From: an uncultured Planctomycetales bacterium
GTDB lineage: Bacteria; Omnitrophota; Gorgyraeia; Gygaellales; Profunditerraquicolaceae
Reading direction: 5' to 3'
DNA length: 64,000 nucleotides
Assembly: GCA_964542785.1 (NCBI GenBank)
Contig: CAZIUK010000003.1
Coordinates: forward strand, 12,946 to 76,945
Positions 55,736-61,599 of this stretch are shown piece by piece. Made by a program: the position numbers and the translations under genes. How positions within the stretch are numbered: the first letter of the stretch is position 1; every line of letters starts with the position of its first letter. The notes below the pieces were generated by a model. The model saw nothing but the letters and a program-made list of their open reading frames with translations, was not told where the DNA came from and did not search any database.

Positions 55736-56614
55736 ATGCATAAAGATGTAGATATTTTAGTTATCAAAGGAGAAGAAAAAGCCACAGGGTTGATTGAATC
55801 TACGGTTCGTTCTGCAGGCTACAATGTTTGGTTGGCCAATGATCATAATGAAGGCTTGAAGCTTTTGCGTTCTAATACTTTCCCGATAGTAATTACAGAA
55901 GTACTTTCTGTAAAGATGGATGTTGCTCACTTTTGTAGAGAGGTCAACAAACTAAGCCCGTTGACTAACGTGATTGTTGTTGCCCTCTATTCTTTAATTA
56001 ATAACGCTATTAAGGCTATGGAGGCAGGGGCTTACGGGTATATTACTAAGCCACTAAATGTTTCTGAAATACGTATAGTCGTGGAGAGGGCAGTAGAGAG
56101 GTACTTTCTGTTTTCTGCCAGGGAAGATAAGGATTATTTTGTTGATTTAGCTGTAAGGGATGGGCTTACCGGACTTTTTAATCGGCGCTATTTTAATGAA
56201 TTAATAAAAATAGAGTTTAGCCGCATTAAGCGGTTACCGTCGTTTCTCTCTCTGCTAATTCTTGACATAGATAATTTTAAAAACTATAATGATACGCAAG
56301 GACATAGCGCAGGCGACATTTTATTAAAGAATGCCGCTAAAATTTTTAAGAGTTCTGTGCGTACCGTAGATATAGTTTTTCGCTATGGGGGAGAGGAGTT
56401 TGCAGTAATACTTCCTAGTACAGATAAAAAAGGGGCTCAGATTATTGCAGAGAGGATACGTATGCAGGTGAGCCTGTATCTACCTACTACTGTAAGTATA
56501 GGCATTTCTACTGCCCCAGAAGATGCCGAGGAGATAAGCCTATTGATAGAGAAGGCGGATAAGGCTTTGTATCAAGCGAAGAACAGTGGTAAAAATAAGT
56601 GGTGTGTTGCATGA
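55736..56614 (+). CDS. Diguanylate cyclase with a degenerate receiver domain (REC-GGDEF)
   Basis: 292 aa. The active site GGEEF has an RxxD I-site (RTVD) 5 residues upstream. In the REC domain the phospho-acceptor position reads IVITEV (Glu instead of Asp), and the acidic pair is replaced (ILVIKGEE). Confidence 0.8.
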   Translation: MHKDVDILVIKGEEKATGLIESTVRSAGYNVWLANDHNEGLKLLRSNTFPIVITEVLSVKMDVAHFCREVNKLSPLTNVIVVALYSLINNAIKAMEAGAYGYITKPLNVSEIRIVVERAVERYFLFSAREDKDYFVDLAVRDGLTGLFNRRYFNELIKIEFSRIKRLPSFLSLLILDIDNFKNYNDTQGHSAGDILLKNAAKIFKSSVRTVDIVFRYGGEEFAVILPSTDKKGAQIIAERIRMQVSLYLPTTVSIGISTAPEDAEEISLLIEKADKALYQAKNSGKNKWCVA

Positions 56615-56835
56615 GGGTTCTTATACTAGAGCCTAAAGGGACTATTTGGGAGGGGATAGCAGAGCAAGTGACCCTTCCGGCTAAAGAAGGTCAAATGTGT
56701 GTGCTTGATTTTCATCAGCCTTTTGCAGTTAGGTTGATAAATGGCAGCATTGTTTTTAGCAATAAAAGAATAAAAATAAAAGACGGGGTTGCTTATATGC
56801 GGTCTAACAATTTGACGGCCTTTGTGCAAACTTAA
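56611..56835 (+). CDS. atpC: F-type ATPase epsilon subunit, beta-sandwich domain only
   Basis: 74 aa from MRVLILEPKGTIWEGIAEQVTLPAKEGQMCVLDFHQPF.... This fits the pattern of the epsilon N-terminal domain, and no C-terminal helical hairpin is present. An ATGA overlap links it to the GGDEF gene stop. Confidence 0.6.
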   Translation: MRVLILEPKGTIWEGIAEQVTLPAKEGQMCVLDFHQPFAVRLINGSIVFSNKRIKIKDGVAYMRSNNLTAFVQT

Positions 56836-56840
56836 AAAAT

Positions 56841-57053
56841 ATGAGTAGTATAGGATTAATTATCGTTATGTTTTTAAGCACTGCCGGCCCGGCTGCAGTT
56901 ATAGCTTTTGTAGGATATGCTGCGGTTAAGGCGGTCGCGCGTAATCCTTCCGCGAGCCCAAAGATATTTACTGTTATGATTCTATCATTTATATTCGCAG
57001 AGGCGATAGCGATTTTAGCCCTTCTGATTATATATAATTTGTTTACCAAATAA
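56841..57053 (+). CDS. atpE: F-type ATPase subunit c
   Basis: 70 aa forming a two-helix hairpin. The loop is ARNP and the helix-2 carboxylate is in IFAEAIAILAL. Confidence 0.8.
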   Translation: MSSIGLIIVMFLSTAGPAAVIAFVGYAAVKAVARNPSASPKIFTVMILSFIFAEAIAILALLIIYNLFTK

Positions 57054-57060
57054 GATAAAT

Positions 57061-59264: not shown

Positions 59265-59337
59265 AATGGGGGACGAAATGGGGGACAGCGACTTTTTTCT
59301 AAAAAAAGTCGCTGTCCTCCCATAAAGTCGCTGTCCC
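59265..59337. repeat. REP-like cluster between atpA and atpG
   Basis: A partial head AATGGGGGAC is followed by GGGGACAGCGACTTTTTT (59281-59298). Reverse copies are AAAAAAAGTCGCTGTCC (59301-59317) and AAAGTCGCTGTCCC (59324-59337). Confidence 0.9.
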
Positions 59338-59349
59338 TCCCATTAAAAG

Positions 59350-60192
59350 ATGATACCGGTTGGGAAGCTAAAAGTAAACCTGCAGTTTAATAAGAACCTC
59401 GGCAATTTAGTTGAGGTGATGAAGTTGGCGGCGACCTCGCAGTTTAATCAATTTCGTTTAAAGGGGGAGCCGTCTTCTGAGTATGTAAAGCTGCTTGGTG
59501 ATTTCTTTGGAACCCTTTTAAGTATTGGTATTGGCAATGATTTATTAAGGCCCAGGGAGGGCCTGCCGTCTCTTTTAGTCTTAGTAAGTTCCGATGAAGG
59601 TTTTTTAGGAGAGCTTAACTTTCTTTTAGTTAATAGTCTTCTTAATACTTTAAGGCGAAATGATATCATTGCTTGTTCAGGAACCTTAGGGGCCAACTAT
59701 TTAAAAGAGGTCCAAATTGACTTTTCTTATTTTGATTCTCCTGGAGAAAAGCTTGATACAAAAGCCCTATCTTCCTTAAGGGATTATATATTAAACCTTT
59801 ATTTAAAGAAGAAGGTTGGCAGGGTTTATATAATTTACTCTAAGTTTATAAACATCGGCGCTCAACAGATTGAGGTAGAGACTATATTGCCTTTGTTTCA
59901 AGATTACCAGATGCAAAGAGTCCCCATTCAAAATTTTTTAATTGAGCCTAACCTTAAGTCGGTAATAGAAGGATGGGTTAAAAGCTGGCTGGATTTTCGC
60001 CTTTATCAAATTTTTTGGTTAAGCAAGCTCTCAGAGTTTGCCGCTAGGATTATGCATTTAGAGGGTAGTGTCCAAGAGTTAAAAAGGATAAATGGCCGCT
60101 TGAATATAGAGTATTTTAAATATTTACATGCCTTATCTGATAAATCGATTAGGGAGATTACTGCGGCGCGTTTAATTAATAAATATAGGTAA
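59350..60192 (+). CDS. atpG: F-type ATPase gamma subunit (divergent)
   Basis: 280 aa, positioned between alpha and beta. The N-terminus (NLGNLVEVMKLAATSQFNQF) and C-terminus (LSDKSIREITAARLI) resemble the terminal helices of gamma. Confidence 0.6.
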   Translation: MIPVGKLKVNLQFNKNLGNLVEVMKLAATSQFNQFRLKGEPSSEYVKLLGDFFGTLLSIGIGNDLLRPREGLPSLLVLVSSDEGFLGELNFLLVNSLLNTLRRNDIIACSGTLGANYLKEVQIDFSYFDSPGEKLDTKALSSLRDYILNLYLKKKVGRVYIIYSKFINIGAQQIEVETILPLFQDYQMQRVPIQNFLIEPNLKSVIEGWVKSWLDFRLYQIFWLSKLSEFAARIMHLEGSVQELKRINGRLNIEYFKYLHALSDKSIREITAARLINKYR

Positions 60193-60195
60193 TTT

Positions 60196-61599
60196 ATGGA
60201 AACAAGTTCTTTAGCCAAAATTATTGCAGTTTATGGTTCAGTAGTGGATGTGCAGTTTCCCTTAGGAGTAAATCTACCTGTAATAAATACTATGCTTAAG
60301 GTCCGCAATAGCCAGAGTGAAGATATAGGGCTTCAGGTAGTTGAACACCGCGGGGGTAATGTCTGTCGTTGTGTGGCGTTAGGGTTTACTTATGGGGTAG
60401 GGAGGAATATGCGCGTTGAGGTTATGAAACAAGGAGTAACTGTGCCTAAGGATCTCTCTATGCTTTATGGGCGGGTATTAAATGCTATGGCAGTTCCTAT
60501 TGACTATAAAGAGGCCATAGATACCAAAGATATTATTCCCATAAAAGATTTTTCCTCTAAAACAAGCTCTGGGATGAATTTAGAAGTGGGGCAAAAACCT
60601 GAGATTATACATACAGGAATAAAAATGATAGATTTATTATACCCACTTGTAAAGGGTTCTAAGAGCGGGCTTTTAGGCGGGGCTGCCTGTGGCAAGACTA
60701 TACTTATTCTTGAGATTATACATAATATTATTAGTTATCAAAGCGGTACCTGTATTTTTGCAGGAGTTGGAGAGCGTATAAGGGAGGGGAATGAGCTTTA
60801 CCATGAATTTTTACGGGCCGAACTTTTAAGCCGTTCTATATTGGTTTTTGGCCAAATGAATGAGTCTCCGGGTATGCGTTTTAAGGCAGCGCATACTGCG
60901 GTTGCCTTAGCTGAAATGATACGTTCTAATGGCAGGGATGTTCTTTTTTTTATGGATAATGTATTCCGTTTTGTGCAGGCAGGTAGCGAGATTTCTACCT
61001 TGCTTGGCAGGATACCTTCTGAGGGGGGGTATCAATCGACCCTTACCAGCGAGATAAGCCAGTTGCATGAGAGAATTAGTTCTGAGAAATATGCAAGCAT
61101 CACCGCTATTGAAGCTATTTATGTGCCTGCCGATGACCTTACAGATCCTGCTGTTGTCGCTATATTTGCGCATATGGATAACTTAATAGTTCTTTCTCGT
61201 TCGCTTGTGCAGCGTGGGCTATATCCAGCTATAGATCCTTTACAATCTTCCGCTAATTCTTTGAGTCCTGCTATAGTTGGCAAAAAACATTTTGAAGTAG
61301 CTCAAGAGGTTTTGAAGCATTTTAGACGCTATGAAGAATTAGAGCGTATTGTTTCTATTATAGGGAAAGAAGAGCTTTCTAGCGAAGAGAAGATTATTTT
61401 CGACCGTGCAAAAAAACTACAGAATTTTCTCTCACAACCGTTTTTTACCGCACAAATGTATACCGGAAAACCCGGAGAGTTTGTTGAGATTGCCGATACA
61501 ATTTCAGGTTGTGAAATGATAATCCGTGGAGATTTAGATAAGGTAGGTGAGGCTAGTCTTTATTCCATAGGAAAGATTAATAAATTAAATGGAGATTAA
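60196..61599 (+). CDS. atpD: F-type ATPase beta subunit (divergent)
   Basis: Walker A is GGAACGKT. Also present are [55 protein letters not shown] and [10 protein letters not shown]. Confidence 0.88.

Follow-up and report, generated by a model that had tools for sequence, protein, structure and literature searches.

The ATPase sections of Seymour et al. (2023; PMC10066038) describe non-respiratory, 'symbiotic' F-type ATPase gene clusters in every class of the Omnitrophota, located at most 10 kb from a type IVa pilus (T4aP) cluster in 57 of 66 contigs and encoding an α subunit that groups near Mycoplasma's ATPases of types 2 and 3. The phylum is also reported to have distinct 'respiratory' F-type and V/A-type ATPases, and the lineage is described as fermentative, in the relevant parts of the same paper and of a 2026 preprint (10.64898/2026.06.07.730766), which finds α and β in 125 of 176 complete genomes, γ in 30 of the 176 by strict KofamScan and V/A-type subunits in 70–99% of the Gorgyraeia genomes outside the order Pluralincolimonadales. 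Here, we analyze a cluster of this kind in a 64,000 nt stretch of DNA from contig CAZIUK010000003.1 of assembly GCA_964542785.1 (hereafter the window, in whose numbering all positions are given). Six tightly packed plus-strand open reading frames (ORFs; 56611–61599), assigned with Pfam and NCBIfam models, encode ε, c, a b/δ stalk protein, α, γ and β, in that order, with a cluster of repetitive extragenic palindromic (REP) hairpins between α and γ. Our overall interpretation, held with slightly better than even confidence, is that the six genes encode an ATP-driven rotary pump or motor for a pilus apparatus, the stator of which is encoded in trans or is so far unrecognized.

Loci of this type have already been reported for the Omnitrophota, and the window holds one further instance. 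It shares with the published clusters the phylum, the divergent α and β, the adjacency to a PilB/PilC/pilin cluster and the spread over classes: a divergent α/β cluster, with α judged here independently of the published tree, is followed 2 nt beyond β by PilB and then by PilC. The passages of PMC10066038 devoted to the locus characterize it by α and β phylogenies and by co-location, and in those passages there is no mention of a missing subunit a, a c-ring with an invariant glutamate, a stalk that retains only the C-terminal domain of δ, a truncated α or a coupled GGDEF gene. The present analysis adds the placement against family models, the invariant catalytic and c residues, ratios of nonsynonymous to synonymous substitution rates (dN/dS), the architecture of the stalk and the truncation of α.

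A sequence-only reading of the window had proposed the gene order given above, with an ε of 74 residues reduced to its β-sandwich and a 70-residue c with a single glutamate and no Na+-type pattern, and the ORFs and Pfam matches agree with it on each of these points. The intergenic gaps from ε to β measure 5, 7, 4, 98 and 3 nt (with α counted from the ATG at 57779). The 74-residue ORF (56611–56835) does score as ε, matching PF02823 (ATP-synt_DE_N) at 40.1 bits; the match spans residues 5–77 of the 78-residue form that begins at a GTG, and C-terminal helices are absent. Gene calls for ε in relatives range from 74 to 86 residues, the aligned ORFs stop a few residues past the sandwich domain and the ε ORFs of the family leave no room for a C-terminal helical hairpin. 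Subunit c (56841–57053; PF00137, 41 bits; TIGR01260, 27.1 bits, under the cutoff of 43.95) has one glutamate, Glu54, and an R-N-P loop. Glu54, Arg34 and Pro36 are invariant in 28 close and four distant homologues and are shared with canonical c subunits, and the invariance of Glu54 holds down to 43% identity. When the sequence is compared by eye with the Ilyobacter motif, Val stands at the Na+-ligand position of the helix 1 Gln, and Ala/Ile at that of the Ser/Thr following the Glu.

The α subunit (57779–59251) has 490 residues when counted from the ATG at 57779, a start that we adopted because the longer TTG form (57755) overlaps the b/δ gene and the α subunits of relatives have 485–495 residues. 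It passes the canonical models NF009884 (556.6 bits, cutoff 554) and TIGR00962 (539.6 bits, cutoff 484.45), its P-loop reads GDRQIGKT and its arginine-finger motif SVSRIG is conserved in the family. The γ subunit (59350–60192; 280 residues) is divergent: PF00231 is matched at 98.8 bits (cutoff 39.9) and TIGR01146 at 71.6 bits (cutoff 194), and identity is 20–23% to clostridial γ and 47–92% inside the family. The β subunit (60196–61599; 467 residues) passes TIGR01039 (519.8 bits, cutoff 462.85) and is 43–44% identical to canonical clostridial β. Its P-loop is GGAACGKT, with a family form beginning GGAA[C/L]; the P-loop Lys/Thr, GERxREG, the Walker B Asp, [VI]FR and VPADD are conserved across the family, as is EELSxEE, which resembles the DELSEED motif. 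The aromatic residue preceding the adenine-pocket VPADD is Tyr in all members except two, in which it is Phe. The sequence-only reading had noted Walker motifs in divergent catalytic subunits; the motifs are indeed present, but only the β P-loop is unusual, since GDRQIGKT also occurs in a canonical α subunit (L037).

Relative to the closest of the related loci (L008), dN/dS lies between 0.036 and 0.34 for the six genes and is a comparable 0.067 for PilB, and α, β and c are 59–96% identical across at least 29 species. All six genes are thus under purifying selection, with the catalytic residues and the ion-binding residue of c intact, and a complete, catalytically competent F1 head (α3β3), a γ/ε shaft, a c-ring and a single-chain stalk are selectively maintained. 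A decaying remnant of an atp operon that had lost atpB and been disrupted by REP sequences would fit the missing subunit a, the REP cluster inside the operon and the degraded transposase gene nearby, but the six ORFs are intact, the same gene set recurs in the species just mentioned and the REP cluster occupies a spacer and breaks no ORF. The intact motifs and the dN/dS range therefore indicate that the ATPase genes are not decaying. Pseudogene features, which the sequence-only reading had named as something that would change its interpretation, are absent; dN/dS and conservation effectively refute a pseudogene, and the probability that we leave to decay is next to nothing.

The six genes are part of a larger operon of type-4a-pilus/type-II-secretion-like kind and not a stand-alone atp operon. 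The sequence-only reading identified the ATPase cluster correctly and missed its pilus and cyclic di-GMP (c-di-GMP) context. Immediately upstream, on the same strand as are all of the neighbours described here from 44023 onwards, a response-regulator diguanylate cyclase with REC and GGDEF domains (55736–56614; PF00990, 154.8 bits; PF00072, 48.4 bits) has a stop codon that overlaps the ε start codon (ATGA). Downstream, a PilB/GspE/MshE-type assembly ATPase with an MshEN domain (61602–63227; PF00437, 432.6 bits; PF05157, 53.2 bits) starts 2 nt past the β stop codon and is followed by a PilC/GspF platform protein (63228–64000; PF00482 T2SSF, 79.1 bits), of which the N-terminal 257 residues are present before the gene runs off the window. 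In relatives, a PilM–PilN fusion, a 176-residue protein and pseudopilins lie 3′ of PilC. The overlap and spacing indicate translational coupling of the ATPase genes to the GGDEF gene upstream and to PilB/PilC downstream, and the gene arrangement and domain content (a GGDEF protein upstream and MshEN on PilB) point to a link with c-di-GMP. As read from its residues, the GGDEF protein has kept its active site (GGEEF) and an I-site of the RxxD form (RTVD), and its REC domain seems degenerate: the sequence ILVIKGEE stands where the acidic DD pocket would be expected, and the presumed phospho-acceptor position is a Glu (VITEVL). This suggests a cyclase that would act independently of phosphorylation.

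Farther upstream, the super-locus begins with a giant 3115-residue surface/adhesin-like protein (44023–53370), and most related loci have a homologue of it ahead of the ATPase genes; it has no Pfam match here, and weak Big_1 matches were obtained in relatives. It is followed by a 234-residue bitopic protein (53496–54200) with a signal/transmembrane (TM) N-terminus and a C-terminal TM anchor but no Pfam match, and by a Peptidase_MA_2 protein (54267–55046; PF13485, 59.8 bits), whose position is conserved in relatives. The region 29591–36609 encodes, besides an ExeA-like AAA_22 protein, a tandem pair of secretins, of which the second has TPR repeats, and a HisKA_3 kinase paired with a LuxR response regulator. 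Since secretins and an ExeA-like AAA_22 protein are encoded there, the secretion/pilus super-locus probably spans from ∼29.6 kb to beyond the end of the window.

This arrangement is a property of the family. We collected 29 related loci in GTDB species genomes, labelled Omnitrophota or, in four cases, 'uncultured Planctomycetales'; homologues of the 237-residue b/δ protein and of β belong to Candidatus Omnitrophota/Omnitrophica wherever they are named, the exception being a partial fragment of 143 residues labelled Gemmatimonadaceae. The string giant protein, 234-residue protein, peptidase, (RAYT, a REP-associated tyrosine transposase), GGDEF protein, ε, c, b/δ, α, γ, β and PilB recurs in all close loci as far as the contigs reach, and also in relatives with a β that is 59–62% identical. 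The REC-GGDEF gene lies directly 5′ of ε in every close locus that reaches that far except the divergent L036, and PilB follows β in every locus that is long enough, with one small gene inserted between them in L044. Two far more distant operons (L155 and L156), retrieved by profile search, lack the REC-GGDEF gene 5′ of ε; their ATPase genes are still directly 5′ of PilB–PilC, and nearly every locus, these two included, encodes a homologue of the 234-residue protein upstream of its ATPase genes. The order in L155 (GCA_964603585.1, 5865–11093) is α, ε, c, b/δ, γ, β; since this operon is reordered and yet adjacent to PilB, the linkage of the ATPase to PilB survives rearrangement. The PilB of L155 has an extra C-terminal PilZ domain, a c-di-GMP sensor fused to the pilus ATPase. 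In three more distant relatives the downstream pilus cluster includes an HHH_3 (ComEA-like DNA-binding) protein (L043, 17209–18057; L044, 11251–12150; L045, 17314–18168), a hint that the pilus may, among other roles, take up DNA.

Placement within the ATPase families was based on model cutoffs and on bit scores against chains in the PDB, as a proxy for a phylogeny with N-ATPase and Mycoplasma references, and it places the enzyme in a deeply divergent F-type lineage. The features shared with canonical F1Fo enzymes are α and β subunits that pass the atpA and atpD equivalog models, a P-loop, a catalytic Glu and an Arg finger that are all intact, and a recognizable γ, ε N-terminal domain, c carboxylate and b helix. 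The canonical order is atpIBEFHAGDC. The present cluster differs in having no a or I gene, an ε that comes first and lacks its C-terminal domain, a b fused to the C-terminal domain of δ only, an α without its N-terminal helix and identities of 20–44%.

N-ATPases offer a second comparison. They lack δ, possess a longer b with a stalk like that of A-type E and act as export pumps (Dibrova et al., 2010, as summarized in PMC5706428). The cluster resembles them in lacking a separate δ, in having a long b whose C-terminal part is globular, in being an F-type ATPase additional to the main enzyme and, probably, in working as a pump rather than a synthase. The alignment of the 237-residue protein to TIGR03321, the b model of N-ATPases, runs from end to end (residues 6–234 to 8–243 of 246), and the N-ATPase order atpDCQRBEFAG likewise contains ε followed, at a distance, by c, b, α and γ, with β shifted to the end in the present cluster. 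It is unlike them in lacking a, AtpQ and AtpR, in the 5 nt ε–c spacer, in the terminal β, in the absence of Na+ ligands from c and in its pilus operon. All of the N-ATPase models failed (α, TIGR03324, 498.9 bits against a cutoff of 750.5; β, TIGR03305, 460.1 against 752; b, TIGR03321, 49.1 against 224.7), and sampled distant members of the family fail them as well.

Membership of the Mycoplasma type 2/type 3 'F1-like X0' family is suggested by the published α phylogeny, at least as presented in the ATPase sections of PMC10066038, and both are additional F1-derived ATPases outside central energy metabolism in host-associated bacteria with reduced genomes. However, all four models for that family failed (α, NF045863, 410 bits against a cutoff of 600, and NF045936, 344 against 520; β, NF045858, 410 against 850, and NF045934, 373 against 570), and β scores 365–437 bits against every canonical F1 β of known structure and 344 bits against the β subunit of the gliding-motor G1-ATPase of Mycoplasma. 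The type 2/3 clusters comprise seven genes without homologues of b, δ or c and encode proteins with three and 12 TM segments instead (PMC3369863), whereas the present cluster has c and b/δ and no 3-TM or 12-TM protein. Because the Mycoplasma models failed, the canonical models were passed and both c and b/δ are present, membership is not supported, and we regard it as very improbable.

The peripheral-stalk protein of 237 residues (57061–57774) matches PF00430 over residues 6–135 and PF00213 (OSCP) over residues 75–234, and passes the δ model TIGR01145 (60.1 bits, cutoff 57.5). An AlphaFold2 (AF2) model built with 45 homologues (pLDDT 89) consists of a helix at residues 2–134, a second helix at 137–157 and an α/β domain at 168–235. 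In Foldseek comparisons only this last domain matches the C-terminal domain of δ/OSCP, with 68–86 residues superposed at low r.m.s.d. on bacterial δ chains, among them the b-δ protein of M. smegmatis (∼69 residues, r.m.s.d. 1.6) and E. coli δ (76 residues); alignments to mitochondrial OSCP are longer with r.m.s.d. values above 19 Å. The model and matches show a b-type TM segment and long helix joined to the δ C-terminal domain alone, without the N-terminal helical bundle of δ. The mycobacterial b-δ proteins (PDB 7NJN and others) likewise fuse a b-type helix to δ and supply the top structural matches of the C-terminal domain; they differ in their length of ∼445 residues and in keeping the full δ, and their model NF009961 scores 51.9 bits here against a cutoff of 328. 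The stalk family comprises at least 134 representatives at 50% identity (E ≤ 1e-30), nearly all of ∼240 residues and matched over their full length apart from a few short fragments. The TM helix is nearly invariant: Gln9 and Thr12, both polar, as well as Phe13, Arg21 and Phe24 show little or no variation.

In solved synthases, the N-terminal helix of α binds δ. Residue 6 of the α subunit aligns with residues 22–31 of solved α chains, and all α subunits of the family lack this helix of ∼17 residues, a loss that matches that of the δ N-terminal domain. The sequence-only reading's b protein ending in a δ/OSCP-like domain is upheld by the Pfam matches, the AF2 model and the Foldseek matches; what its description as a b-δ fusion left unmentioned is that only the C-terminal domain of δ is retained and that the α N-terminus has been lost to match. 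A stalk of b and the δ C-terminal domain, with the α N-terminus co-lost, bears on the kinship of F-type b/δ and A/V-type E stalks.

These results bear on the first of the two explanations offered by the sequence-only reading, a primary ATP synthase rearranged so that ε moved to the front and atpB lies elsewhere, as in Campylobacterota. The canonical scores of α and β and the intact catalytic and ion-binding residues accord with it, and truncated ε subunits exist in some phyla (NCBIfam has ε equivalogs of 88–102 residues, for example NF009983). Orthologous subunits of primary synthases generally share identities well above 43–44% in β and 20–23% in γ, the values obtained here against clostridial subunits. 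The cluster is, moreover, embedded in and coupled to a pilus/secretion operon in all relatives, the loss of the δ N-terminal domain and α N-terminus is unlike all solved primary synthases, and the phylum is reported to have the separate respiratory F-type and V/A-type enzymes cited above. Given this embedding and divergence, a primary synthase is the less likely of the two proposals, and in our estimate an improbable one. The second, a specialized additional F-type enzyme, draws support from the coupling to GGDEF and PilB–PilC, from the phylum-wide synteny, from Seymour et al. (2023) and from the V/A-type subunits of Gorgyraeia.

The sequence-only reading had also stated that no subunit a gene lies in the window, and this holds: ATP-synt_A has no Pfam match in any window ORF of at least 100 residues, and a hidden Markov model (HMM) built from six canonical a subunits has none in the six-frame translation of the window. 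The same HMM found no match in 415 kb of related Omnitrophota loci, and ATP-synt_A is absent from the precomputed Pfam matches for the genes of ten related loci. As for atpI, likewise said to be missing, the spacers of 2–7 nt leave no room for it (the REP spacer aside), no search with an atpI model of its own being made. A scan of metagenome contigs for the REP 17-mer gave 109 matches, about the number expected by chance on a rough estimate, of which ∼10 had a paired hairpin; the 709 kb around these roughly chance-level matches contain no a subunit. The 234-residue protein and its counterparts of 297 residues in L156 and 419 residues in L155 were considered as analogues of a and rejected, because each is bitopic, with just one N-terminal and one C-terminal hydrophobic segment.

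Some evidence comes from the source data of Seymour et al. (2023), in the part that covers three genomes with ATPase KEGG orthology (KO) assignments (58, 221 and 231). Genome 221, a 94.6%-complete metagenome-assembled genome, has K02111 and K02112 and no K02108; of the F-type set, the α and β KOs are the only ones listed for it in these data. The absence of K02108 is suggestive but anecdotal, because b, c, γ and ε of the cluster also fail the KofamScan thresholds. In the same excerpt, genomes 58 and 221 have KOs for V-type I (K02123) and K (K02124) without those for V1 A/B (K02117/K02118), and their F-type KOs run straight into K02121 or K02123. For these genomes, the occurrence of V-type I and K without A and B could be binning or threshold noise, or could reflect a V-type I subunit working with the E-like stalk.

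To our knowledge, every characterized rotary ATPase with a c-ring needs a stator channel of the a/I type. In the interpretation that we favour, hydrolysis of ATP by α3β3 would turn γ/ε and the c-ring against a membrane-anchored, E-like b/δ stalk, and the enzyme, working as a hydrolase, would be a rotary H+ pump or motor for the pilus/secretion apparatus of a fermentative, host-attached cell. The half-channel partner on the stator side would be either a divergent subunit a encoded elsewhere or a protein so far unrecognized. We infer the direction from the absence of the ε C-terminal domain, which is inhibitory in bacteria, from the fermentative lineage and from the pumping activity of the similar N-ATPases. 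The invariant buried carboxylate of c and the conserved b TM helix speak for the existence of an ion path and of a partner in the membrane; that a is missing from ∼35 operons, rearranged ones among them, speaks against a canonical a as a component of the complex.

Several considerations count against this interpretation. The analysis turned up no protein that would form the stator channel, which leaves ion pumping a proposal; in a complex truly devoid of a, pumping would be impossible and the role could only be mechanical or regulatory. The complex and any physical link to the pilus are predicted from genes, co-transcription of the ATPase with the pilus genes is deduced from gene spacing alone, and the REP hairpin could partly uncouple γ and β from the upstream genes in this genome.

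An ATPase that truly lacks a, rotary or not, would transport no ions and would do mechanical, scaffolding or export work for the PilB/PilC platform, comparable to FliH–FliI–FliJ of type III secretion or to the F1-like motors of Mycoplasma. It would explain why, across the ∼35 operons, a is absent with all of the other subunits still clustered, even in L155, and why the cluster is always directly 5′ of PilB–PilC; a stalk of b and the δ C-terminal domain is an architecture that PMC5706428 likens to A-type E and FliH, and genome 221, in the source data cited, agrees in lacking K02108. On the other hand, the membrane-buried Glu54 of c is invariant over the whole range of identities and the b TM helix keeps its canonical polar signature, neither of which is readily accounted for unless ions have a path and b has a partner in the membrane. 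We also know of no F-, V- or A-type enzyme with a c-ring that works without an a or I subunit. On balance, an a-less ATPase seems rather unlikely, although it is the main rival of the pump or motor.

A more speculative possibility, to which we assign a low probability, is a new kind of rotary machine in which F1, a c-ring and an E-like stalk operate without a canonical a and the c-ring is engaged by another stator, such as the PilC/GspF platform encoded next door, an I subunit of V type or an unrecognized protein. Rotation would be driven by ATP (or by ions) and coupled directly to secretion or to assembly or retraction of the pilus. This would fit because the linkage to PilB–PilC is unbroken over deep divergence, a is systematically absent and the Glu of c is invariant.

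A whole phylum keeps a conserved set of F1, c-ring and stalk genes without an a gene in the operon, wired to a pilus/secretion system with a presumed role in attaching to host cells or preying on them. Should a divergent a be encoded elsewhere, the enzyme would be a dedicated membrane energizer for a pilus in ultra-small fermentative cells; if there is none, it would put the architecture of rotary ATPases to a new use and be a natural intermediate linking ATPases that pump ions with those of secretion.

The REP cluster reported in the middle of the operon by the sequence-only reading is real. It fills the 98 nt α–γ spacer (59252–59349) with three copies of the core AGTCGCTGTCC, at 59283 (−), 59307 (+) and 59326 (+); the window as a whole has 14 copies of this core, where 0.43 would be expected. 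The spacer is predicted to fold into a hairpin of −45.8 kcal/mol (z = −7.1) that includes a 19 nt inverted repeat with 95% complementarity, and no T-run terminator was called at it. The corresponding α–γ junctions in relatives range from an overlap to 72 nt, and the insertion is therefore lineage-specific. A truncated RAYT (Y1_Tnp) remnant of 117 residues (55297–55650), 3.6 kb upstream of the cluster, is flanked by inverted REP cores at 55078 (−) and 55699 (+). The remnant has no Pfam match of its own; it is 64–95% identical to ORFs of 211–235 residues at the same position in relatives, those of L003 and L006 matching PF01797, on which the Y1_Tnp assignment is based, and the copy in L009 is cut to 98 residues. 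Further REP insertions lie at 32631–32664, 36660–36870, 38525 and 53393–53447, in addition to that at 59283–59336. The dispersed palindrome and the REP-flanked Y1_Tnp remnant therefore identify a genuine REP/RAYT element, which resembles known ones in its short GC-rich palindrome in intergenic spacers and in a Y1_Tnp-family gene between inverted REPs, and differs in the truncation of its RAYT copy. The cluster inside the operon would have come from this neighbouring, now degraded element and would at most modulate mRNA stability.

The gene for the 3115-residue protein contains a near-exact internal duplication with a period of 1929 nt (643 residues), the copies beginning at ∼44708 and ∼46637. 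A protein segment beginning IVPAATSRITLNSPDDMTAG is present twice, two antisense ORFs of identical length lie 1929 nt apart within the gene and a 300 nt stretch aligned between both copies is 99–100% identical. Tandem Repeats Finder reported nothing on this gene, the period of 1929 nt exceeding its limit. The duplication could be a recent event or an assembly artefact.

Elsewhere in the window, the large subunit of ribonucleotide reductase (19404–23003) is interrupted by an intein that contains a homing-endonuclease domain of the LAGLIDADG type (matches to Intein_splicing and LAGLIDADG_3 fall within residues ∼149–544). Beyond the 3′ end of a large ORF (7–3423; Peptidase_M54), the segments 3589–4633 and 4671–11643 encode a pair of PilZ-domain proteins, two transporters (a sugar ABC transporter and one of the MFS type) and a GH2-like hydrolase. 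The genes at 7–11643 match the pattern of a giant gene, pilZ and carbohydrate import described by West-Roberts et al. (2023).

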